Shown here piece by piece: positions 53,290 to 64,000 of a stretch of 64,000 nucleotides of DNA (position 1 is the stretch's first letter; the number at the start of each line of letters is the position of its first letter). The notes under the pieces are model-generated. The model saw only the letters and a list, made by a program, of their open reading frames with translations. It made no database searches and was not told where the DNA came from. Source of the DNA: Psilocybe cubensis (taxonomy: Eukaryota); NCBI GenBank assembly GCA_017499595.2, contig CM039006.1, forward strand, positions 3,038,001 to 3,102,000, read 5' to 3'. The translations under genes were made by a program, and so were the position numbers.

Positions 53290-54026
53290 GCCACCGCGGA
53301 GCGTGGCATGACGAGTCTTTACGATTCAGCGTCACGCTTTGTAATAATATAATATATATATAATATAATATAAATATGTCCAACTTTGACGTGGATATCG
53401 GTGCAATGGACGAAGTGATATTCAGACTCCAAGGCATAGTTAGCGACAAGATGCTACCACCAATGGCAAAGCCTGCTTTGTACGTCCACTCCATTGAGGT
53501 GAATTAATTACAAATGAGGACTGTTACAGCCGCGACAGAACGGTCAAGCAACAACCATATTTACGTACCGCCATTGCTATCACGGGACTCGGAGACATTG
53601 TGTTCAATAAGGTGATGGAAAAGCTAGAAGAAGTTTTCCTCCGTTTTGCAAACAATTTTCCCGCGGACAGCGTCAGCGGCTATGACCCAGTTCTTCACAA
53701 AGACACGGGTTTCAATGTTTTCCATGCGCATAGCCAATATTTCACGAAGGTATCCGCATATCAAGACAAATCTGACAACATAGGTTTTCATCCCCTGGTC
53801 AACCCTGATAACGTGTTGGCGTCCATGGTAGGGGACAGTTTCATCCACGCAATCGATAACAAGGTACAGTTTCTTCGTCGGGAGATACTTCCTGACGGAA
53901 CAGCCAGGTATGTTTAGAAAATACCAACAACACATCACAACCAAACTAATATCATGTTGCAACAGATATTATTCTTATAATCCTGCCTCCATACGAATTG
54001 GAGACATTGTCGAGATCAGTGTTTAG
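53290..54026 (+). pseudogene. Multi-exon gene of unknown function, 3'-truncated by the retroelement array
   Basis: Exons DEVIFRLQGIVSDKMLPP, AITGLGDIVFNKVMEKL..FLRREILPDGTAR|YYSYNPASIRIGDIVEISV. The frame stops at GTT TAG exactly where the element sequence begins (54021). Confidence 0.55.
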
Positions 54027-54030
54027 GGGG

Positions 54031-54065
54031 GGAGCGAGCACCGAGCGAAGCGAGGTGCGAGCGAC
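54031..54065 (+). other. Hairpin with three tandem G.A pairs and a GCGAAGC cap (also at 58444, 59148 and 63551)
   Basis: G-GA-GC-GA-GCACC-GA-GC-GAA-GC-GA-GGTGC-GA-GC-GA-C is symmetric if GA:GA sheared pairs are allowed. Confidence 0.7.
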
Positions 54066-54095
54066 TAGTTTAAACTGGGAGTTAAAATGGAAAGA

Positions 54096-54160
54096 AGCCA
54101 GAGGGCTGTTGGGGGATCCCAACAACCAGCCCTTTCGTCTTTATAGACTCTTCAGTGGCT
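54096..54160 (-). ncRNA. Type I hammerhead ribozyme
   Basis: Minus strand reads AGCCA CUGAAGA GUCU-AUAA-AGAC GAAA GGGCUG..CAGCCC UC^ UGGCU. The catalytic core and stems I-III are complete, with predicted cleavage between 54101 and 54100. Confidence 0.92.
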
Positions 54161-54695
54161 ATTCTTAGAAGGAATGTTCTAGACATCCGATGACAGCGCG
54201 TGAAGTGATGCTGCGCAGCTGTCATGTATCTTACCGACTATCACAAATCTGTCAATGTTTATTGTCAAGTTAGACAGGTCTCTGATGAACAGAGTGTCAC
54301 GGGTCAATGTGGCACATGGTAACCTGTCAAAAGTGGATCCAACACTTTTGTTCTTTGACATCGTGGGTTATTGACTGTGATGTGAATCACATGGATATAG
54401 AGTACTCTGGTTACGTGGCTCCGAGTAACCGCGACATGGGAATATTCACATGTCTAGAGTATAAATAGCTTACCTGGGTCCTTACCTAACAATCAATTGA
54501 TTGATTGTTGTGAATCTTAATTGGACAGTTCATGATCCGGTCCATCAAAAATGTTTCCACGGTACTAAGGAACTTTTCCCGAGGTACTAAGTAACTTTTC
54601 CCATGTACTAAATTAGATCCGGCCCTTCACAATCACATGCCGTTCGGAAGTTCACACGCCTACCTTACTTCCTACTAAGGTTAGACTTAGTTAGC

Positions 54696-54756
54696 TTAGG
54701 GTTGGGGTTAGGTTAGGGCTTAGGGTTTAGGGTTTAGGGTTTAGGTTTAGGTTTAG
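54696..54756 (+). repeat. Telomere-like tract (TTAGGG/TTTAGGG/TTTAGG variants) in the element 3' UTR
   Basis: TTAGGGTTGGGGTTAGGTTAGGGCTTAGGGTTTAGGGTTTAGGGTTTAGGTTTAGGTTTAG. Confidence 0.9.
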
Positions 54757-54868
54757 CTATTTAATCCAATGTGTTGCTTGTAAGTAGATGTTTGTTACTT
54801 TGTAGCAAGGAATACTTACGGTTAGGGTTTTTTTCTAATGCTTTACGCCTTAAGCGCTAGTATTCTTT

Positions 54869-57800
54869 TCATCGGTTGTAAGATTTGGATATTCTGCCGA
54901 ATTCTGGATGTTCCCTCTCTTGTGAGATTGAACGTCTATGAAGTATTATCTCGTTATCACTTTCGATACTTATCTGCTCAGCAGCTTCAACTAGAGCAGA
55001 ATGATAAGTTTCATTAACGTTTTGAGTTTCGGGAACAACACCACCTTTTTCGGCAATGTCTTCATCCAGTTTACGAAAGACTGTTTTCTTCCACACATTT
55101 GCAAGGTCGAAAAGATTAGTATTGCGTTTTCGCGATACTATCCAACGACTTCCGAGTAGTCCTATCTTCCTCAAATCCGGTACGAACTCAGTTTCTCCGT
55201 CCACGAGGATCTGTGTGAACAGCTCCGGGCGAACATCATCGAGGTCGTGAACGTAATTTGGATCTGGTTTGATAAGGGGTCTGGACGAGTCTGCACTATA
55301 CAGACCTTTCTCGGCATGTTCATACCATGCCGACCAGTACTTGGTAACAGTTTTTCCAAGTTCAGCAGCTGAAAACCAATTCCATACCTGATCAAACCTG
55401 GTTTTAAGTACAAGAATGGATTCGTCGTGCTCTGCGACTCGTAAAGCGAATCGCTTTTTCCAACGTTCTTGTATATTCTTCTTACACCAAGACATGACTA
55501 GGTTTTCGGGATAACCGCGCATCAAATAGAGAGCGTTAAGGTCTCTAATTGCTCCAATGTAGATTTCCTTGGTACTACATAGCACGGCTAACCTGGATAA
55601 CTCTCCAATGTAGACGCCACGTTTGACGTCCAAAGGATGATGTGATACCCATGGAACTCGTTCTCGGTTGTTTCCTGTCTTGACAAATGGCTTCCAATGA
55701 AGTTTTCCAGACTCCTTGAATATGAAAGCATCGAGAAATTGACATCCCGACAAGGAAACAGCCCATTCGATAACACAACCATCGAACTTTATTGTTTCTT
55801 TAATAAGATTAAGTGCAAGTGCTTCGGACTCGGCGTAAACAATTGCGAAACAATCGTCGATGTACCTTCCATAGAAGGCCACATTTGGGTGGTCTAAGAT
55901 TTTTGACTTTATTTCAAAATGGGCTCCAAAGAGGTTAGCAAGGTCCGGAGAATCCGCGACGCCCATTGCGAGGCCATTTTTTTGTCTAAAATATCTAGAC
56001 CCATGTTGTGTTATCAATTGCGTATTGCCAATCTCGATAGCACGTTTAAAGATGCCCAATTTAACCAAGTTATTCTCTAACGAATTTGGATTAATATGGG
56101 CTAATGCAGTGTTTTCTTCCGAAGCGTTGAGTAACCATTCCTCGTACATACTACAAACGATTTCGATGCACAAGTCCAACGGAATATTGGGATAGAAAGC
56201 GACTACATCCCCGGTGACAAAATACCATTGTCGTTTGGGGTCTATACGCAATTGGCTTAATCTCGTAAAGAGATCCTTCGTTCCGTGAATGATTGAAGGA
56301 GTCGATTTAATAATCGGCTTAAGCTCTTTTGATACAAACTTGGCTGCAGGATTAAAAACTACAGAGTGACACGGAATTATGGGCCTAAATCCAGTAGGTT
56401 TCTTGTGGATTTTAGGTATACCATGAAATTGAGGATACTTGAACGATGATCCGTCTTCCGGTACATTCGATAGAAAGAATCGAGACAACCCAAGTTCAAA
56501 TAGAAACAGATGTTCATCTTCGACGGTACGTGCGAGAGTTTGCATCTGAATCATTTTGCTCTTCATAACTTCTTGCGCAACTTCGAATTCTAACTCTTCG
56601 TAGTTGCGTTCATCTTCAAGAAGATTGAGCTCATTCCTTAATATCCAGTCGCGTTCAGACACCGCGAGGCCAAGATTCTTATCTGTCATCGTAATAACAT
56701 AGTTGTTATCGATAAGAAACTTTTGGATCTTGTCCCTTTTAGGAGAGAACGCGTGCTTTCGCATCTCTTTAAGGGCTTCTTCCGGGATACTTGCGATCGT
56801 TTTAATAACGTACCGACGTCCCATTGAAAGGCCAAGTTCCATAAATTGCGGTAACATTGGAGGTTTCTCTTTCTTTTTAGAGCTTACTCCATAGTCTGGA
56901 TCGAAAGGTTTATTCATGCCTTCTTTAAACAAAAAATAGATACGCCATCTTATTCTTCGTTGAAAATCATTCCATGCTTGCATGATCAGACTTTTAGAAG
57001 GCAGTGTAAAAAACATATAATTGAGTCCAAGAGATAAATCATTTGCTACATCAACAGGGACCGAAACACCAGGACTACAGTGTACACTAGATCTATACTG
57101 GCCAGCCAATAAGAATGAAATCGGGGTATTGAGGTGTACAAAAGAAACTGCGTCTGTTTTAGTCATGGTGAGTATATCGTCAGGAATAGAGTTGGGGAAG
57201 GCGGGTCTCACCGACGTAAATGATGCTACAGTAGACCGCGCGTCTAGGCTCTTGCCTTTCCCTTTCCCTTTGGATCGTTGTTCTTGACGGGAGCTCTCCC
57301 CTTCCCTTTCTTCTTGTTGTCGACCTTGTTGGAAGCCTTGGTTTGAGGCTTCCTCTGCGAAGGCGTCGACGACGACTTGGGTTTCGAAGGGCCAGCTTTC
57401 CTGGCCTGAGGTTGAGGAGCCTTGGACGAATTCTGGCCAGACAAAGTCTGGGTAATTAGAGTAATAATTAGTGTCCAGAATTATGGGTGAAGGGTTACGA
57501 AAACTTGCCTTCTTGCCCACAGATCCAAGGTTGAGCTTTTTGAGACGTGCATTCAAGCCCTTATCAATAAGGGATTGAATCGATGGACCTGGTTTGGTCG
57601 CATCGGCCATCTCGACATCGGCTGTTGCCGCAGTCGTCCGCTTTTTCTCAATCTTAATTGCCAAGACGCGGTGGCGCATGTTGACAATCTGTTTGATATG
57701 AGAAAAGATCGCCGGCAGTATAGTTTGCAGCGCACTGCATTCGGCTTTCTTTTGCGGAGACACTACCCACTCTGCTATACGTCGAACTCCCTTGTTGTCT

Positions 57801-58402
57801 GTAGAGAAAACAGGGAGCTTGTAGCTGGATTTGCGATCATCGTAAGTTGCCTTAACGATGAGGGCAGCAGCTTCGTAGCAAGAGTTGAGCGCGCATTTAT
57901 CATCCCAAAAAGCCAGCTCGTCCTTTTTCGCCTGAACGGCGCCGTCGTTAATTGCCTTTTGGAAGGCATCACGAGCGGAAGAGAACGTAGTGGAGACTCG
58001 AAGAGCCTCCGCTGACCCGGCATCCGCGAATTCCTTCGTAAGTTGGAACTCGGGTGCCTTCACCTTAAGGCGATTGGGCGTGTTGCCTGCGCTAACGGCA
58101 GATTCAAGGCGCTCGAGGCTAGCCTTGACTGTTTCCCTCTTATCGCACCACGATGCGAGGTTGTGGAGAAACTCCCTAAGGGCAGCACGATAGTCAAAAA
58201 AGACGCAGTCTATGACTTGGTCAACGGAGCGGCACTCAGCTATTTTTTTGATGACCACAGTGGCCAGCTCGTCGATCAGAGCGTTATGGCGGCCTGCTTC
58301 ATCGTTGACGCCGAAGACGGTGTTGTTGACGACGGCCTGGGTGAGTGCGTCCAGGGTGGGGGACATGGCACGAGAGAAAGCAGCAGAATATTGGGATGAC
58401 AT
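54869..58402 (-). CDS. ORF1-reverse transcriptase fusion, Penelope-like class, 1177 aa, no recognisable GIY-YIG endonuclease
   Basis: Motifs GIPKIHK..FRPII, TGDVVAFYPNI, QKNGLAMG..SPDLANL, YGRYIDD and FLD, plus thumb PWVSHHPLDVKRGVYIGELSRL. Confidence 0.93.
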   Translation of the reverse strand: MSSQYSAAFSRAMSPTLDALTQAVVNNTVFGVNDEAGRHNALIDELATVVIKKIAECRSVDQVIDCVFFDYRAALREFLHNLASWCDKRETVKASLERLESAVSAGNTPNRLKVKAPEFQLTKEFADAGSAEALRVSTTFSSARDAFQKAINDGAVQAKKDELAFWDDKCALNSCYEAAALIVKATYDDRKSSYKLPVFSTDNKGVRRIAEWVVSPQKKAECSALQTILPAIFSHIKQIVNMRHRVLAIKIEKKRTTAATADVEMADATKPGPSIQSLIDKGLNARLKKLNLGSVGKKASFRNPSPIILDTNYYSNYPDFVWPEFVQGSSTSGQESWPFETQVVVDAFAEEASNQGFQQGRQQEEREGESSRQEQRSKGKGKGKSLDARSTVASFTSVRPAFPNSIPDDILTMTKTDAVSFVHLNTPISFLLAGQYRSSVHCSPGVSVPVDVANDLSLGLNYMFFTLPSKSLIMQAWNDFQRRIRWRIYFLFKEGMNKPFDPDYGVSSKKKEKPPMLPQFMELGLSMGRRYVIKTIASIPEEALKEMRKHAFSPKRDKIQKFLIDNNYVITMTDKNLGLAVSERDWILRNELNLLEDERNYEELEFEVAQEVMKSKMIQMQTLARTVEDEHLFLFELGLSRFFLSNVPEDGSSFKYPQFHGIPKIHKKPTGFRPIIPCHSVVFNPAAKFVSKELKPIIKSTPSIIHGTKDLFTRLSQLRIDPKRQWYFVTGDVVAFYPNIPLDLCIEIVCSMYEEWLLNASEENTALAHINPNSLENNLVKLGIFKRAIEIGNTQLITQHGSRYFRQKNGLAMGVADSPDLANLFGAHFEIKSKILDHPNVAFYGRYIDDCFAIVYAESEALALNLIKETIKFDGCVIEWAVSLSGCQFLDAFIFKESGKLHWKPFVKTGNNRERVPWVSHHPLDVKRGVYIGELSRLAVLCSTKEIYIGAIRDLNALYLMRGYPENLVMSWCKKNIQERWKKRFALRVAEHDESILVLKTRFDQVWNWFSAAELGKTVTKYWSAWYEHAEKGLYSADSSRPLIKPDPNYVHDLDDVRPELFTQILVDGETEFVPDLRKIGLLGSRWIVSRKRNTNLFDLANVWKKTVFRKLDEDIAEKGGVVPETQNVNETYHSALVEAAEQISIESDNEIILHRRSISQEREHPEFGRISKSYNR
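57244..58402 (-). CDS. Predicted spliced ORF1 protein (365 aa; exons 58402-57509 and 57447-57244) with a Lys-rich tail
   Basis: Intron 57448-57508: AAG|GCAAGT...CTAAT...CCCAG|ACT. Splicing joins VGKK in frame to TLSGQNSSKAP...KGKGKARA*. Confidence 0.65.
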
Positions 58403-58508
58403 AGTGGCTGATGGGTGATAGCAAAGTCGTTGGGTTTAGGGGGGGAGCGAGCACCGAGCGAAGCGAGGTGCGAGCGACTAGTTTAAACTGGGAGTTAAAA
58501 TGGAAAGA

Positions 58509-58573
58509 AGCCAGAGGGCTGTTGGGGGATCCCAACAACCAGCCCTTTCGTCTTTATAGACTCTTCAGTGGCT
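58509..58573 (-). ncRNA. Type I hammerhead ribozyme
   Basis: Identical to 54096-54160. The predicted cut is 111 nt upstream of the ATG at 58402. Confidence 0.92.
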
Positions 58574-59212
58574 ATTCTTAGAAGGAATGTTCTAGACATC
58601 CGATGACAGCGCGTGAAGTGATGCTGCGCAGCTGTCATGTATCTTACCGACTATCACAAATCTGTCAATGTTTATTGTCAAGTTAGACAGGTCTCTGATG
58701 AACAGAGTGTCACGGGTCAATGTGGCACATGGTAACCTGTCAAAAGTGGATCCAACACTTTTGTTCTTTGACATCGTGGGTTATTGACTGTGATGTGAAT
58801 CACATGGATATAGAGTACTCTGGTTACGTGGCTCCGAGTAACCGCGACATGGGAATATTCACATGTCTAGAGTATAAATAGCTTACCTGGGTCCTTACCT
58901 AACAATCAATTGATTGATTGTTGTGAATCTTAATTGGACAGTTCATGATCCGGTCCATCAAAAATGTTTCCACGGTACTAAGGAACTTTTCCCGAGGTAC
59001 TAAGTAACTTTTCCCATGTACTAAATTAGATCCGGCCCTTCACAATCACATGCCGTTCGGAAGTTCACACGCCTACCTTACTTCCTACTAAGGTTAGACT
59101 TAGTTAGCTTAGGGTTGGGGTTAGGTTAGGGCTTAGGGTTTAGGGGGGGAGCGAGCACCGAGCGAAGCGAGGTGCGAGCGACTTGTTTAAACTGTGAGTT
59201 AAATGGAAAGAA

Positions 59213-59277
59213 GGCCAGAGGGCTGTTGGGGGGTACCAACAACCAGCCCTTTCGTCTTTATAGACTCTTCAGTGGCT
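59213..59277 (-). ncRNA. Type I hammerhead ribozyme (variant B)
   Basis: Same core and stem II. Changes are confined to the stem III loop and the outer part of stem I. Confidence 0.9.
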
Positions 59278-59812
59278 ATTCTTAGAAGGAATGTTCTAGA
59301 CATCCGATGACAGCGCGTGAAGTGATGCTGTGCAGCTGTCATGTATCTTACCGACTATCACAAATCTGTCAATGTTTATTGTCAAGTTAGACAGGTCTCT
59401 GATGAACAGAGTGTCACGGGTCAATGTGGCACATGGTAACCTGTCAAAAGTGGATCCAACACTTTTGTTCTTTGACATCGTGGGTTATTGACTGTGATGT
59501 GAATCACATGGATATAGATTACTCTGGTTACGTGGCTCCGAGTAACCGCGACATGGGAATATTCACATGTCAAGAGTATAAATAGCTTACCTGGGTCCTT
59601 ACCTAACAATCAATTGATTGATTGTTGTGAATCTTAATTGGACAGTTCATGATCCGGTCCATCAAAAATGTTTCCACGGTACTAAGGAACTTTTCCCGAA
59701 GTACTAAGTAACTTTTCCCATGTACTAAATTAGATCCGGCCCTTCACAATCACATGCCGTTCGGAAGTTCACACGCCTACCTTACTTCCTACTAAGGTTA
59801 GACTTAGTTAGC

Positions 59813-59866
59813 TTAGGGTTGGGGTTAGGTTAGGGCTTAGGGTTTAGGGTTTAGGTTTAGGTTTAG
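59813..59866 (+). repeat. Telomere-like tract in copy 2
   Basis: Same as 54696-54756 with one TTTAGGG fewer. Confidence 0.9.
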
Positions 59867-59978
59867 CTATTTAATCCAATGTGTTGCTTGTAAGTAGATG
59901 TTTGTTACTTTATAGCAATGAATACTTACGGTTAGGGTTTTTTTCTAATGCTTTACGCCTTAAGCGCTAGTATTCTTT

Positions 59979-62900
59979 TCATCGGTTGTAAGATTTGGAT
60001 ATTCTGCCGAATTCTGGATGTTCCCTCTCTTGTGAGATTGAACGTCTATGAAGTATTATCTCGTTATCGCTTTCGATACTTATCTGTTCAGCAGCTTCAA
60101 CTAGAGCAGAATGATAAGTTTCATTAACGTTTTGAGTTTCGGGAACAACACCACCTTTTTCGGCAATGTCTTCATCCAGTTTACGAAAAACTGTTTTCTT
60201 CCACACATTTGCAAGGTCGAAAAGATTAGTATTGCGCTTTCGCGATACTATCCAACGACTTCCGAGTAGTCCTATCTTCCTCAAATCCGGTACGAACTCA
60301 GTTTCTCCGTCCACGAGGATCTGTGTGAACAGCTCCGGGCGAACATCATCGAGGTCGTGAACGTAATTTGGATCTGGTTTGATAAGGGGTCTGGACGAGT
60401 CTACACTATACAGACCTTTCTCGGCATGTTCATACCATGCCGACCAGTACTCGGTAACAGTTTTTCCAAGTTCAGCAGCTGAAAACCAATTCCATACCTG
60501 ATCAAACCTGGTTTTAAGTACAAGAATGGATTCGTCGTGCTCTGCGATTCGTAAAGCGAATCGCTTTTCCCAACGTTCTTGTATATTCTTCTTACACCAA
60601 GACATGACTAGGTTTTCGGGATAACCGCGCATCAAATAGAGAGCGTTAAGGTCTCTAATTGCTCCAATGTAGATTTCCTTGGTACTACATAGCACGGCTA
60701 ACCTGGATAACTCTCCAATGTAAACGCCACGTTTGACGTCTAAAGGATGATGTGATACCCATGGAACTCGTTCTCGGTTGTTTCCTGTCTTGACAAAAGG
60801 CTTCCAATGAAGTTTTCCAGACTCCTTGAATATGAAAGCATCGAGAAATTGACATCCCGACGAGGAAACAGCCCATTCGATAACACAACCATCGAACTTT
60901 ATTGTTTCTTTAATTAAATTAAGTGCAAGTGCTTCGGACTCGGCGTAAACAATTGCAAAACAATCGTCGATGTACCTTCCATAGAAGGCCACATTAGGGT
61001 GGTCTAAGATTTTTGACTTTATTTCAAAATGGGCTCCAAAGAGGTTAGCAAGGTCCGGAGAATCCGCGACGCCCATTGCGAGGCCATTTTTTTGTCTAAA
61101 ATATCTAGACCCATGTTGTGTTATCAATTGCGTATTGCCAATCTCGATAGCACGTTTAAAGATGCCCAATTTAACCAAGTTATTCTCTAACGAATTTGGA
61201 TTAATATGGGCTAATGCAGTGTTTTCTTCCGAAGCATTGAGTAACCATTCCTCGTACATACTACAAACGATTTCGATGCACAAGTCCAACGGAATATTGG
61301 GATAGAAAGCAACTACATCCCCGGTGACAAAATACCATTGTCGTTTGGGGTCTATACGCAATTGGCTTAATCTCGTAAAGAGATCCTTCGTTCCGTGAAT
61401 GATTGAAGGAGTCGATTTAATAATCGGCTTAAGCTCTTTTGATACAAACTTGGCTGCAGGATTAAATACTACAGAGTGACACGGAATTATGGGCCTAAAT
61501 CCAGTAGGTTTCTTGTGGATTTTAGGTATACCATGAAATTGAGGATACTTGAACGATGATCCGTCTTCCGGTACATTCGATAGAAAGAATCGAGACAACC
61601 CAAGTTCAAATAGAAACAGATGTTCATCTTCGACGGTACGTGCAAGAGTTTGCATCTGGATCATTTTGCTCTTCATTACTTCTTGCGCAACTTCGAATTC
61701 TAACTCTTCATAGTTACGTTCATCTTCAAGAAGATTGAGCTCATTCCTTAATATCCAGTCGCGTTCAGACACCGCGAGGCCAAGATTCTTATCTGTCATC
61801 GTAATAACATAGTTGTTATCGATAAGAAACTTACGGATCTTGTCCCTTTTAGGAGAGAACGCGTGCTTTCGCATCTCCGTAAGGGCTTCTTCCGGGATAC
61901 TTGCGATCGTGCGTTGCACGTACCGACGTCCCATCGAAAGGCCAAGTTCCATGTATTGCGGTAATACTGGAGGTTTCTCTTTCTTTTTTGAGCTTACTCC
62001 GTAATCTGGATCAAAAGGTTTGTTCATGCCTTCCTTAAACAAAAAATAGATACGCCATCTTATTCTTCGTTGAAAATCATTCCATGCTTGCATGATCAGA
62101 CTTTGAGAAGGCAGAGTAAAAAACATATAATTGAGTCCGAGCGACAAATCATTTGCTATATCTACAGGGACCACCACACCAGGACTACAGTGTACACTAC
62201 TACGATACTGGCCAGCCAACAAGAATGAGATCGGCGTATGTAAGTGTACAAAAGAAACTGCGTCTGTTTTAGTCATGGTGAGTATATCGTCAGGAATAGA
62301 GTTGGGGAAGGCGGGTCTTACCGACGTAAAAGGTACTACATTAGACCGCGCGTCTAGGCTCTTGCCTTTCCCTTTCCCTTTGGATCGTTCTTGACGGGAG
62401 CTCTCCCCTTCCCTTTCTTCTTGTTGTCGACCTTGTTGGAAGCCTTGGTTTGGGGCTTCTTCTGCGAAGGCGTCGACGAGGGTTTGAATTTCGAAGGGCC
62501 AGCTTTCTTGGCCTGAGGTTGAGGAGCCTTGGACGAATTCTGGCCAGACAAAGTCTGGGTAATTAGAATAGTAATTAGTATCCAGAATTATGGGTGAAGG
62601 GTTACGAGAACTTGCCTTCTTGCCCACAGATCCAAGGTTGAGCTTCTTGAGACGTGCATTCAAGCCCTTATCAATAAGGGATTGAATCGATGGACCTGGT
62701 TTGGTCGCATCGGCCATCTCGACATCGGCTGTTGCCGCAGTCGACCGCTTTTTCTCAATCTTGATTGCCAAAGCGCGGTGGCGCAAGTTGACAATCTGTT
62801 TGATATGAGAGAAGATGGCTGGCAAAATGGTTTGCAATGCGCTGCATTCAGCCTTCTTCTGCGGTGACACTACCCAATCTGTTATTCGACGAACTCCCTT

Positions 62901-63509
62901 GTTGTCTGTAGAGAAAACGGGGAGCTTATAGCTGGATTTGCGATCATCGTAAGTTGTCTTAACGATGAGGGCAGCAGCTTCATAACAGTTATTGAGTGCG
63001 CATTTATCATCCCAAAAGGCCAGTTCGTCCTTTTTCGCCTGAATGGCGCCGTCGTTGATTGCCTTTTGGAAGACATCACGAGCGGTGGAGAACGTAGAGG
63101 AAACTCGAAGAGCTTCCGCTGACCCGGCATCCGCGAATTCCTTCGTAAGTTGGAACTCGGGAGCCTTCACCCGAAGGCGATTGGGGGTGTTGCCTGCGCT
63201 AACGGCAAGTTCAAGGCGCTCGAGGCTAGCCTTGACTGTTTCCCTCTTATCGCACCACGATGCGAGGTTGAGGAGAAACTCCCTAAGGGCAGCACGATAG
63301 TCAAAAAAGACGCAGTCTACAATCTGGTCAATGGAGCGGCACTCAGCTATTTTCTTGATGACGACAGTGGCCAACTCGTCGATGAGGGCGTTGTGGCGGC
63401 CAGCTTCGTCGTTGACGCCAAAAACTGTGTTGTTGACGACAGCCTGGGTGAGTGCGTCCAGGGTGGGGGACATGGCACGAGAGAAGGCAGCAGAGTAAGT
63501 GGAAGACAT
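59979..63509 (-). CDS. ORF1-reverse transcriptase fusion, Penelope-like class, 1176 aa
   Basis: Intact ORF with the same RT motifs (YIDD). Confidence 0.93.
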   Translation of the reverse strand: MSSTYSAAFSRAMSPTLDALTQAVVNNTVFGVNDEAGRHNALIDELATVVIKKIAECRSIDQIVDCVFFDYRAALREFLLNLASWCDKRETVKASLERLELAVSAGNTPNRLRVKAPEFQLTKEFADAGSAEALRVSSTFSTARDVFQKAINDGAIQAKKDELAFWDDKCALNNCYEAAALIVKTTYDDRKSSYKLPVFSTDNKGVRRITDWVVSPQKKAECSALQTILPAIFSHIKQIVNLRHRALAIKIEKKRSTAATADVEMADATKPGPSIQSLIDKGLNARLKKLNLGSVGKKASSRNPSPIILDTNYYSNYPDFVWPEFVQGSSTSGQESWPFEIQTLVDAFAEEAPNQGFQQGRQQEEREGESSRQERSKGKGKGKSLDARSNVVPFTSVRPAFPNSIPDDILTMTKTDAVSFVHLHTPISFLLAGQYRSSVHCSPGVVVPVDIANDLSLGLNYMFFTLPSQSLIMQAWNDFQRRIRWRIYFLFKEGMNKPFDPDYGVSSKKKEKPPVLPQYMELGLSMGRRYVQRTIASIPEEALTEMRKHAFSPKRDKIRKFLIDNNYVITMTDKNLGLAVSERDWILRNELNLLEDERNYEELEFEVAQEVMKSKMIQMQTLARTVEDEHLFLFELGLSRFFLSNVPEDGSSFKYPQFHGIPKIHKKPTGFRPIIPCHSVVFNPAAKFVSKELKPIIKSTPSIIHGTKDLFTRLSQLRIDPKRQWYFVTGDVVAFYPNIPLDLCIEIVCSMYEEWLLNASEENTALAHINPNSLENNLVKLGIFKRAIEIGNTQLITQHGSRYFRQKNGLAMGVADSPDLANLFGAHFEIKSKILDHPNVAFYGRYIDDCFAIVYAESEALALNLIKETIKFDGCVIEWAVSSSGCQFLDAFIFKESGKLHWKPFVKTGNNRERVPWVSHHPLDVKRGVYIGELSRLAVLCSTKEIYIGAIRDLNALYLMRGYPENLVMSWCKKNIQERWEKRFALRIAEHDESILVLKTRFDQVWNWFSAAELGKTVTEYWSAWYEHAEKGLYSVDSSRPLIKPDPNYVHDLDDVRPELFTQILVDGETEFVPDLRKIGLLGSRWIVSRKRNTNLFDLANVWKKTVFRKLDEDIAEKGGVVPETQNVNETYHSALVEAAEQISIESDNEIILHRRSISQEREHPEFGRISKSYNR
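62354..63509 (-). CDS. Predicted spliced ORF1 protein (364 aa; intron 62555-62615)
   Basis: The GC donor, CTAAT branch sites, CAG acceptor and 61-nt length are all conserved with copy 1. Confidence 0.65.
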
Positions 63510-63615
63510 GGTAGCTGTTGGGTAATAGCAAAGTCGTTGGGTTTAGGGGGGGAGCGAGCACCGAGCGAAGCGAGGTGCGAGCGACTTGTTTAAACTGTGA
63601 GTTAAATGGAAAGAA

Positions 63616-63680
63616 GGCCAGAGGGCTGTTGGGGGGTACCAACAACCAGCCCTTTCGTCTTTATAGACTCTTCAGTGGCT
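63616..63680 (-). ncRNA. Type I hammerhead ribozyme (variant B)
   Basis: Identical to 59213-59277. The predicted cut is 111 nt upstream of the ATG at 63509. Confidence 0.9.
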
Positions 63681-64000
63681 ATTCTTAGAAGGAATGTTCT
63701 AGACATCCGATGACAGCGCGTGAAGTGATGCTGTGCAGCTGTCATGTATCTTACCGACTATCACAAATCTGTCAATGTTTATTGTCAAGTTAGACAGGTC
63801 TCTGATGAACAGAGTGTCACGGGTCAATGTGGCACATGGTAACCTGTCAAAAGTGGATCCAACACTTTTGTTCTTTGACATCGTGGGTTATTGACTGTGA
63901 TGTGAATCACATGGATATAGATTACTCTGGTTACGTGGCTCCGAGTAACCGCGACATGGGAATATTCACATGTCAAGAGTATAAATAGCTTACCTGGGTC

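Follow-up and report, generated by a model that had tools for sequence, protein, structure and literature searches.

Head-to-tail copies of a Coprina-type Penelope-like retroelement in Psilocybe cubensis: identical pseudo-LTRs within each copy point to re-use of one template sequence

Introduction

[quoted passage not shown]

The closest described relatives of the element analyzed here belong to the Coprina clade, whose endonuclease-deficient members occur in fungi and other hosts (Gladyshev and Arkhipova 2007, as relayed in PMC8557442 and PMC13159263). In the outline given by these sources, Coprina elements contain a single ORF encoding a reverse transcriptase with a DKN motif and a thumb and no endonuclease, are flanked by direct repeats, carry a hammerhead adjoining a reverse-complement telomeric tract, and occupy chromosome ends in head-to-tail arrays with the ORF directed inward. 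The Psilocybe element is alike in these respects and shows no essential difference from that outline; its start tract is cut down to a single CCCUAAAC after a C run. The Athena elements and Terminons of bdelloid rotifers are also endonuclease-less and telomere-attaching, with hammerheads and reverse-complement telomeric stretches, but according to PMC8557442 and PMC7761336 they have two or many ORFs, can grow to giant size, and represent a different clade in a different host.

The Poseidon element PAc of Anolis is the single Penelope-like element tested in vitro (PMC11167929). Its reverse transcription starts internally, by a stem-loop, and its pseudo-LTRs are those of partial tandems, as in the Psilocybe element. 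PAc differs in possessing a GIY-YIG endonuclease, in its AT-rich targets and in a start that lies in the ORF without primer homology (the cut is 26 nt and the start 111–118 nt into the ORF), whereas in the Psilocybe element the start lies in the 5′ leader and priming would occur by pairing to a telomere-type 3′ end. The main substrate in the PAc assays was unprocessed RNA, and hammerhead mutants were still inserted, with insertion unchanged (PMC11167929).

Retrozymes likewise carry a hammerhead in each flanking repeat, and their RNA is proposed to be cleaved, circularized and reverse transcribed into tandem or repeat-flanked DNA (PMC4918200, PMC7761336, bioRxiv 10.64898/2026.07.22.740005). In the accounts of PMC4918200 and PMC7761336 they have only ~150–700 nt between ribozymes, are non-coding and have yielded detected circles, whereas the Psilocybe element measures 4.4 kb, encodes its enzyme and has a circle proposed from DNA; plant retrozymes differ further in their type III hammerheads and LTR-type priming. 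A hammerhead is present in all four bounding repeats of the Psilocybe locus, as in retrozymes, but its intact ORF sets it apart from elements defined as non-autonomous and non-coding.

The idea of a circular template has been published previously (Cervera and de la Pena 2014, discussion of PMC4209133; Weinberg 2019, review PMC6765202), and neither the kind of element nor the idea is new here. A literature search turned up no title or abstract in which circular RNA was reported as detected for a Penelope-like element. Of 24 sequencing runs listed for the window, 17 contain part of the stretch; a single one is on record as RNA and contains 0.07 of the sampled words, a tally that bears on none of the readings.

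Results and discussion

Structure of the locus

The window (the whole 64,000-nt stretch of P. cubensis DNA that was analyzed) contains, from position 54021 to its last base, an array in which a Coprina-type Penelope-like retroelement without endonuclease is present as two head-to-tail copies (A and B); the best protein matches are from P. cubensis. Both copies have the order repeat-ORF-repeat and lie on the minus strand. The four repeats start at positions 54021, 58434, 59138 and 63541 (spacings of 4413, 704 and 4403 nt), and a 36-nt repeat word occurs four times where no occurrence is expected, which rules out chance.

Copy A consists of the proximal pseudo-LTR A1 (54021–54724), which would have been made first, an ORF (54869–58402) and the distal pseudo-LTR A2 (58434–59145), the presumed product of a second pass. 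An internal telomere-like tract (tract 1; 54690–54756), approx. 110 nt past the stop codon, forms the 5′ edge of the pseudo-LTR; A2 ends within the corresponding tract, and this position is also occupied in relatives. Copy B comprises pseudo-LTR B1 (59138–59834), whose start tract shares approx. 8 nt with the end of copy A, an ORF (59979–63509) and pseudo-LTR B2 (63541–64000), which is clipped by the end of the window.

In the host flank (53498–54020, plus strand), an open frame (53498–53917) is separated from a short second exon by an intron-like gap of the GT..AG type; the whole breaks off abruptly where the element begins, and a Pfam search of this flank returned no family. The position of the array is best explained as a chromosome end, to which each copy would have been added by its own telomerase-like reverse transcriptase.

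The encoded protein

Each copy contains a single ORF (1177 aa in A, 1176 aa in B), whose predicted product combines a telomerase-like reverse transcriptase with a helical N-terminal part. The two ORFs differ by 152 mismatches, 99 of them at the third codon position; the reading frame is intact and under purifying selection. Among 74 aligned relatives, the motifs T573-D574-K575-N576-L577-G578 and Y847-I848-D849-D850 vary little or not at all.

The predicted structure (mean pLDDT 75.5) retrieved telomerase catalytic subunits as the top 11 Foldseek matches in the PDB (E 7e-9 to 1e-6), and a PDB search with the ORF sequence gave only low-complexity matches and a bacterial reverse transcriptase at E 0.13. 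Pfam assigned no family to the window ORF and matched RVT_1 in three of ten relatives. No GIY-YIG domain was found by Pfam in the window ORF or in ten relatives, a result that carries little weight since Pfam was blank for the window ORF altogether. The likeness to telomerase extends to a G-strand 3′ end placed on a C-strand template tract with a helix just 5′ of it, but it is a likeness in working and not of membership: the "template" here runs on for 4.4 kb and encodes the enzyme.

A telomerase-related reverse transcriptase with the DKN/DKG motif, a single ORF in which no GIY-YIG was found, a reverse-complement telomeric tract at the 3′ boundary, attachment to a G-strand end, a hammerhead in the pseudo-LTR and pseudo-LTRs from partial tandem insertion are all features that the element shares with the Coprina (EN-minus) clade. 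By these features it is classified as a Psilocybe member of Coprina.

The hammerhead ribozyme

A motif parser identified a type I hammerhead in all four repeats, on the minus strand only, with N17 at 54101, 58514, 59218 and 63621. The ribozymes occupy positions 54095–54161 in A1 (81.7 bits with our covariance model), 58508–58574 in A2, 59212–59278 in B1 and 63615–63681 in B2, with predicted cuts at 54101/54100, 58514/58513, 59218/59217 and 63621/63620. The first two cuts and the 4413-nt monomer between them had been proposed in the first-pass annotation, and both were recovered by the parser and by the repeat spacing.

Rfam gave only a sub-threshold match in the window (RAGATH-1-hammerhead, E 0.2; 29.1 bits, where the gathering score is 56.3) and no match at the gathering score in 20 relatives. 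With a covariance model built in this study, 442,985 bases yielded 50 matches at E ≤ 0.01, every one on the sense strand of the element; ten seed sequences among this material match by construction. In these matches 92.7% of the cells were paired, compensatory changes were present in 14 of 16 pairs, and none of 500 shuffles reached the observed score. The core columns (CUGANGA ... GAAA ... UH) are invariant, and the compensatory changes occur in helices I, II and III; the G-C pair closing helix II and the A-U pair opening helix III never vary. Helix I ends open, as is typical of type I.

Judged by this pattern, the hammerhead is under selection and is predicted to self-cleave. PMC4209133 describes such fungal hammerheads, whose helix III is long, as stable active monomers and reports a kinetic assay of self-cleavage at 1 mM Mg2+ for a Serpula lacrymans example.

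Two other predictions were set aside: the minimum-energy fold of the ribozyme region did not adopt the hammerhead fold, and RNAalifold applied to a MAFFT alignment recovered helix II alone and was superseded by the covariance model.

Start and end of DNA synthesis

DNA synthesis starts at the CCCUAAAC tract, 72–80 nt 3′ of the hammerhead cut. The start tract of A1 (tract 2; 54021–54032), a C run followed by UAAAC in the RNA, abuts unrelated host sequence 80 nt 3′ of the cut, and position 54021 is the first base of the inserted DNA; since the primer would be a free chromosome end, the first copied base is unambiguous. The annotation had placed the start approx. 75–80 nt from the cut, close to what was measured; in PAc the distance is 85–92 nt (PMC11167929).

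A fixed start at the C-strand tract, as the annotation had supposed, was found at both junctions in the window and at approx. 17 junctions (16 distinct) in relatives, many of which are then followed by C-strand telomere repeats of the matching 6- or 7-nt type. The start tract follows 36 of 41 distinct hammerheads of the relatives, 47–86 nt from the cut (median 65), whereas 749 of 5000 random sequence windows of 115 nt contain the same motif. The longer internal tract was considered as a priming site and dropped, because both junctions in the P. cubensis window begin at the other tract.

As the start tract is located shortly 3′ of the cut, a processed linear monomer would have its sole priming site near its 5′ end and, if fully processed, could give only approx. 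80 nt of cDNA. We found no cDNA ends exactly at the hammerhead cut in 80 related loci and the window, and hence no trace of cleaved linear templates. The search revealed 26 extra occurrences of post-cut words, all but one of which were hammerheads missed by the parser or chance matches; the sole remaining candidate (L023:4722) proved to be a junction within helix III.

Copy A ends at 59137–59145, within the internal telomere-like tract, i.e. 704–712 nt beyond one full period. The over-run of about 710 nt proposed at first is thus correct as a length; it may not be a property of the enzyme, for the telomere-like end tract offers another cause, since an eroding chromosome end would be stabilized or re-primed at such a tract anyway. 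In Penelope and Chlamys, transcription start sites are reported within the pseudo-LTR (PMC8557442). A transcript begun inside the pseudo-LTR would be without tract 1, but the second pass of copy A reaches and includes this tract, which counts in favor of a circular template.

Folding predicts a hairpin (54034–54062, minus strand) in the segment that separates the hammerhead cut from the start tract. It is only modestly stable (z < −2 in 10 of 36 cases, and −1.1 in the window); among the relatives the stems differ and the loop is similar.

Identity of the repeats within each copy

Comparison of the repeats revealed that A1 (54021–54724) and A2 (58434–59137) are identical at all 704 positions and that B1 and B2 are identical over 460 of 460, the whole visible part of B2. 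Across the repeat, A and B differ by eight mismatches and three indels. The doubly covered stretch contains ten A/B differences, four of them in the segment from the start site to the hammerhead cut; all ten are concordant within each copy, and no within-copy difference was found, a comparison that rests on two copies, one of them over 460 nt only. The three variant pairs first noted from the sequence (GACTAG/GACTTG, CTGGGAG/CTGTGAG and a third) are all among the ten.

The combination of no within-copy differences and ten concordant A/B differences indicates that one template sequence served for both repeats of an insertion, as the first-pass annotation had argued; its counter-case, that repeats within a copy might be no more alike than repeats between copies, fails in the window (0 versus 10 differences). 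Separate inheritance of the upstream and downstream repeats would turn each A/B difference into a within-copy one, which rules out inheritance from a two-repeat parent. The locus thus excludes plain inheritance of two repeats and leaves, as the kind of mechanism, the repeated use of one template sequence. The extra length was probably made anew at each insertion in this way.

The repeats could instead have been made alike after insertion, by gene conversion, unequal sister exchange or break-induced copying, or the identity could be an artefact of assembly or polishing. Chromosome ends undergo frequent recombination, which lends this explanation some plausibility; the mosaic divergence of A and B described below could be gene conversion between neighbors, polishing could in principle erase small within-copy differences, and 13 of 80 related contigs self-close in assembly, which illustrates how easily repeats collapse. 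We nevertheless regard it as very improbable: A1 equals A2 and B1 equals B2 while A differs from B, although A2 adjoins B1 and conversion would ignore copy boundaries; these boundaries lie exactly at the priming tract; and partial tandems are described as class-wide in Penelope-like elements, also away from chromosome ends (PMC8557442).

Repeats that are not identical within a copy were found in relatives represented by metagenome assemblies of unknown age: L025 (98.6% over 493 nt), L038 (95.8%) and L045 (95–98%). In L038 the repeats flanking the ORF, at 95.8%, are still more alike than other repeat pairs of the same contig (88.7–91.9%), and in L056, also from a metagenome of unknown age, the upstream repeat is only approx. 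280 nt long and is without the hammerhead core.

How one template may be read twice

In the mechanism that we propose, a G-strand 3′ end would anneal to the element RNA at its CCCUAAAC tract, the primer being the broken host end for copy A and the telomere-like end of copy A for copy B. Synthesis would proceed toward the 5′ end of the RNA, across the cut site and through the pseudo-LTR body and the ORF, back to the start tract, and then a second time through the pseudo-LTR, to end in the internal telomere-like tract. Because the same RNA tract would be reached twice, both pseudo-LTRs of a copy would be read from one RNA sequence. Continuity over the cut could be provided by the rejoined ends of a hammerhead-processed 4.4-kb monomer, around which the enzyme would make approx. 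1.16 rounds; the join may be covalent, or the ends may be held by re-formed ribozyme helices.

That the template was hammerhead-cut RNA rejoined into a circle is our preferred but tentative reading, which we place somewhat short of an even chance; cleavage in vivo, rejoining and travel around the circle are all steps that we infer. In its favor count the single-template origin of the repeats, the selection on the hammerhead, the position of the start tract, the reach of the second pass and the telomerase-like enzyme; against it count the PAc results, the lack of cDNA ends at cut sites in the 80 loci and the window, the small sample of two copies and the non-identical repeats of some relatives. 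Of the original proposal of rolling-circle copying or an end-to-end jump, the single template and the fixed start stand, while the circle itself does not follow, as alternatives yield the same DNA: identical, seamless products are expected whether the template was a circle or an uncleaved concatemer, or the enzyme jumped end to end or re-primed at the start tract.

One such alternative involves two linear RNAs, or one used twice, with the nascent DNA end, once it has reached or passed the upstream start tract, shifting to the 3′ part of an RNA of the same sequence, (i) by an end-to-end jump at the hammerhead ends, (ii) by transfer through the 72–80 nt redundancy between cut and start, in the manner of an R region, or (iii) by telomerase-like re-alignment or re-priming. 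Arrays of this kind normally grow when cDNA ends made earlier are re-primed at the start tract, a process that would be scarless if exact and is exemplified by the A/B junction, by the solo pseudo-LTRs P3 and P4 of L038 and by mini-copies of approx. 30–50 nt in L024 and L015; moreover, the best structural matches of the enzyme are telomerases. Divergence between A and B at third codon positions is 3.1% in 54872–56620 and 13.6% in 56621–58402 (Fisher p = 2e-11; change point ~56721), so that the copies appear as mutual mosaics, as template switching would give.

This alternative would still require an RNA with an uncut 3′ hammerhead and, if two independent molecules were involved, the same variant twice running in both copies. 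Jumps by other reverse transcriptases often leave extra or missing bases, and the four window repeats show none, added or lost, where the cut site lies. We consider the use of linear RNAs possible but doubtful.

Alternatively, an uncleaved multi-unit read-through transcript may have served as the template, on which synthesis would initiate internally, at the start tract; the source would itself have been a young tandem, hence the identical repeats. This corresponds to the model for PAc, in which the mRNA is multi-copy, initiation is internal, the hammerhead is dispensable in vitro and no reads end at the cut (PMC11167929). The PAc result counts against the circle and favors such a transcript, and the head-to-tail arrangement makes read-through RNA plausible. 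On the other hand, the ten concordant A/B differences would stay unexplained, the problem being shifted to how the first identical tandem arose, and a strongly conserved hammerhead of the monomer type would have no part in template formation. In our view a read-through template is unlikely.

The circle reading can be extended to the proposal that this autonomous, telomere-healing retroelement can transpose only from a covalently closed, protein-coding hammerhead circle of 4.4 kb and that the cut-to-tract spacing is a class-wide device, which we judge rather unlikely in this strong form. If it were true, the placement of the priming tract would let only rejoined RNA be copied, and pseudo-LTRs would arise automatically.

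The retrovirus-type mechanism, with two jumps between LTRs, was discarded in view of the telomerase-like enzyme and chromosome-end priming.

With a chromosome-end primer, a monomer-type hammerhead and two copies of different lineage with internally identical repeats, the locus represents a clean natural experiment; the fungus is tractable, and the circle hypothesis could be put to a direct test there.

A priming tract 50–90 nt 3′ of the ribozyme cut was observed throughout the fungal family and is also present in the vertebrate Poseidon element.

Organization of the two element copies

A repeat of approx. 700 nt occurs four times between 54021 and 64000 (starts at 54021, 58434, 59138 and 63541; spacings of 4413, 704 and 4403 nt). 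The plus-strand order is host sequence, A1, ORF-A, A2, B1, ORF-B, B2 and the end of the window, where A1/A2 and B1/B2 are the pseudo-LTRs of two head-to-tail copies (A and B) of a Penelope-like retroelement. Both ORFs are antisense: ORF-A (54869-58402, minus strand, 1177 aa) lies between repeats 1 and 2, and ORF-B (59979-63509, minus strand, 1176 aa) between repeats 3 and 4. The observations of the first-pass annotation on the repeats, cuts and layout from 54021 onward were confirmed.

The first inserted base, 54021, abuts unrelated sequence resembling an interrupted host gene. The host reading frame (53498-54020, with an intron-like gap at 53918-53976), for which a Pfam search found no family, is broken off precisely at the element start, as would fit a broken chromosome end that was healed; the other side of the array falls beyond the window. 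Copy A runs to 59137-59145, within the element's own internal telomere-like tract, and this end is overlapped by approx. 8 nt by the start tract of copy B, i.e. the C-strand telomere-type tract at which inserted DNA begins.

The closest database relatives of the ORF are P. cubensis proteins (98-99% identity), followed by hundreds of proteins encoded on 4-5-kb soil contigs. The motifs TDKNLG and YIDD are invariant. A Pfam search of the window protein returned no family, and RVT_1 was found in 3 of 10 relatives. The 11 best PDB matches of an AlphaFold model (74-sequence input, mean pLDDT 75.5) are telomerase catalytic subunits (E 7e-9 to 1e-6). Residues 1-290 of the ORF-A product (54869-58402) are confidently predicted to form long helices, followed by a basic stretch predicted to be disordered (residues 284-394). 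These N-terminal helices resemble the helical dimerisation arm described for PAc, the Poseidon element of Anolis, which to our knowledge is the only Penelope-like element with biochemistry.

The single ORF directed away from the telomere-like side, the flanking repeats, the ribozyme adjoining a reverse-complement telomeric tract and the finding of no endonuclease identify a Coprina-type endonuclease-deficient Penelope-like element, an assignment made from descriptions in parts of PMC8557442 and PMC13159263. It adds a new member to a clade already known.

The hammerhead ribozyme

A motif parser detected a type I hammerhead in all four window repeats, exclusively on the minus strand (the sense strand of the element), with predicted cuts at 54101/54100, 58514/58513, 59218/59217 and 63621/63620. 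Among 80 related metagenome loci (handles of the type L001) it found 44 sense-strand hammerheads, in 39 loci, and no antisense ones. By itself, the Rfam evidence is not convincing: RAGATH-1-hammerhead scored 29.1 bits in the window, below the gathering score of 56.3, and 20 relatives gave no match at the gathering score.

A covariance model seeded with 10 of the family's hammerhead sequences, which match by construction, gave 50 matches at E <= 0.01 across 442,985 bases, all on the sense strand (4 in the window and 46 in 39 loci). In the model alignment 92.7% of the cells are paired, falling to 36-50% when partners are slid, and both-side changes occur at 14 of the 16 pairs, the only invariant ones being the closing G-C of helix II and the opening A-U of helix III. 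Compensatory cells number 182, against 61.6 in shuffles (none of 500 reached the observed value); a model-fitted alignment biases such counts towards the model, and the signal is nonetheless large. According to sections of PMC4209133, a long helix III of this kind goes with fungal hammerheads that are stable as monomers in the active conformation, and the self-cleavage kinetics of one from Serpula lacrymans were assayed at 1 mM Mg2+.

Start and end of the inserted DNA

Of 41 distinct complete hammerheads, 36 have the C-strand telomere-type tract 47-86 nt past the cut (median 65; 80 nt in the window); of 5000 random 115-nt segments drawn from the same loci, 749 contain the same motif. When hammerheads were sorted by our own rule (ORF next or no ORF next, with two more too close to a contig end), the tract accompanied 22 of the 24 followed by an ORF and 20 of the 22 others. 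Three of these 22 others really precede a broken ORF and two come from a long-leader subfamily; true element junctions in the relatives number approx. 17 (16 distinct). What lies beyond the tract at the junctions is either unrelated DNA, another element (its internal tract and repeat body) or a run of C-strand telomere repeats whose type, 6 or 7 nt, matches that of the tract. In the window, L010, L024, L038, L049 and L079, for which there is an internal comparator, similarity ends at the tract. The tract-bounded junctions in the window and its relatives therefore establish the fixed insertion start proposed earlier. In each relative, the start tract and the repeats beyond it are of the same type (6 or 7 nt).

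The other edge of the repeat is an internal C-strand tract approx. 110 nt past the stop codon; in L038 the end of an earlier element likewise lies within such a tract. The element end is variable, with a bias towards positions that give the new DNA a telomere-like end.

Solo pseudo-LTRs and mini-copies of approx. 30-50 nt (L038:5244-7850, L015:2666-2800 and L024:4450-4530) each begin at the start tract and abut the preceding end via a short telomere-like match; they look like frequent short or abortive additions. In L053 (1-126), 18 perfect 7-nt C-strand telomere repeats are fused straight to the ORF interior, and this is a 5'-truncated element with a telomere cap.

A hairpin precedes the start tract by a few bases on its 5' side (54034-54062, minus strand) and is found at the same place in L001, L004, L008-L010, L020, L034, L042, L056 and L079. 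Several lineages close a similar loop with differing stems, others have a CUUCGG-type loop, and stability is modest (z < -2 in 10 of 36). The hairpin recalls the stem-loop at the PAc start site and the template-boundary helix of telomerase. A TATA-like word occurs at 54461-54470 and at the equivalent site of the other repeats, approx. 290 nt upstream (sense) of the hammerhead; if it marks a promoter, primary transcripts would begin within the pseudo-LTR, without its 5' third.

Both repeats of an insertion probably derive from one template sequence

A1 and A2 are identical (704/704 positions), as are B1 and B2 over the whole part of B2 inside the window (460/460). Between the A and B repeats there are 8 mismatches and 3 indels. 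Ten of these differences fall in the doubly covered part, and all ten are concordant between the two repeats of a copy, including four within the 80 nt separating the start site from the ribozyme cut. The three variant pairs quoted in the first-pass annotation are among the ten.

If the two parental repeats were inherited separately via one long transcript, upstream and downstream repeats would be separate lineages, and each of the ten differences would be expected as a difference within A or within B; none is. It follows that a single template sequence supplied both repeats or that they were homogenised afterwards. Re-use of a single template sequence at each insertion is well supported in the two copies examined. 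The ORF-flanking repeats of L038 (95.8% alike, versus 88.7-91.9% for other repeat pairs) point the same way. As a caution against pressing this too far, repeats of relatives are sometimes non-identical (98.6% in L025, 95-98% in L045).

A further caution is the upstream repeat of L056, which is only approx. 280 nt long (L056:9235-9437 compared with L056:13822-14100). A deletion of 59 nt, flanked by short direct TAGGT repeats, has removed its ribozyme core, and one of 18 nt, likewise flanked by short repeats, has removed part of the hairpin. Apparently, copying passed over structured stretches of the RNA.

Nature of the template

Because the cut is located 5' of the start tract, cleavage at both ribozymes would leave an RNA whose sole priming site is only 72-80 nt away from the 5' end. 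Despite this, the inserted DNA continues past the cut site, where no bases were gained or lost in any of the four window repeats. Three kinds of template fit, all leaving identical seamless DNA.

The template may have been a circle formed from a rejoined monomer, a reading to which we give somewhat less than an even chance, though more than to any other single one. A DNA end would prime at the start tract and synthesis would cross the cut-site position of the monomer, whose ends would be rejoined covalently or kept together by the re-formed ribozyme. The strong conservation of the ribozyme and its monomer type speak for a circle, as does the second pass, which attains the far edge of the repeat, past the point where an internal promoter would begin transcription. 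Of the rolling-circle copying proposed in the first-pass annotation, the re-use of a single template stands; the circle itself is a reasonable, previously published and unproven reading. The discussion of PMC4209133 proposes that ribozyme-cut Penelope-like RNA ends are ligated into a circle and reverse transcribed to more than a unit, accounting for the head-to-tail arrangement; this is restated in part of the review PMC6765202. For the related non-coding retrozymes, rolling-circle mobilisation is the current model in passages of PMC7761336 and bioRxiv 10.64898/2026.07.22.740005. No title or abstract listed in the literature searches reports that a circle was detected for a coding Penelope-like element.

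Two molecules, used through an end-to-end jump, transfer via the shared 72-80 nt or re-priming at a copied start tract, form a possible though rather doubtful source. Arrays visibly grow through re-priming, and A and B are mutual mosaics. When A (54021-58433) is compared with B (59138-63540), the first 2700 nt contain 34 mismatches and the final 1713 nt contain 132; third-codon-position divergence is 3.1% in 54872-56620 versus 13.6% in 56621-58402 (p = 2e-11), and the change point is placed near 56721. Such a mosaic suggests that lineages have exchanged sequence, by recombination, template switching or gene conversion. The pseudo-LTRs, with 8 mismatches in approx. 695 nt, are far less diverged than the rest of the element, which has 159 in 3706.

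An uncut multi-unit transcript is an unlikely template: the model alone does not explain the concordant variants, although the biochemistry of PAc supports it (PMC11167929). PAc used unprocessed RNA in vitro, with the ribozyme dispensable, and among the RNA-seq reads its authors saw none that ended at the cut (PMC11167929). PAc reverse transcription begins internally, 85-92 nt 3' of the cut (PMC11167929). What is new here is a clean locus and a family-wide cut-to-start distance, which matches that of the vertebrate element.

A DNA-level cause (gene conversion, unequal exchange or break-induced copying) or an artefact could also have made the repeats alike; it is less likely than the template explanations, and indeed improbable, as the pattern keeps to copy boundaries though A2 and B1 adjoin, and partial tandems are seen throughout the class.

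Thirteen of the 80 related contigs (L002, L008, L016, L018, L019, L027, L028, L030, L033, L035, L037, L041 and L050) start and finish with the same 77-139 nt, the assembly self-closing at one unit (4.1-5.0 kb). This is expected of repeat-flanked or tandem units, and circular molecules would also fit.
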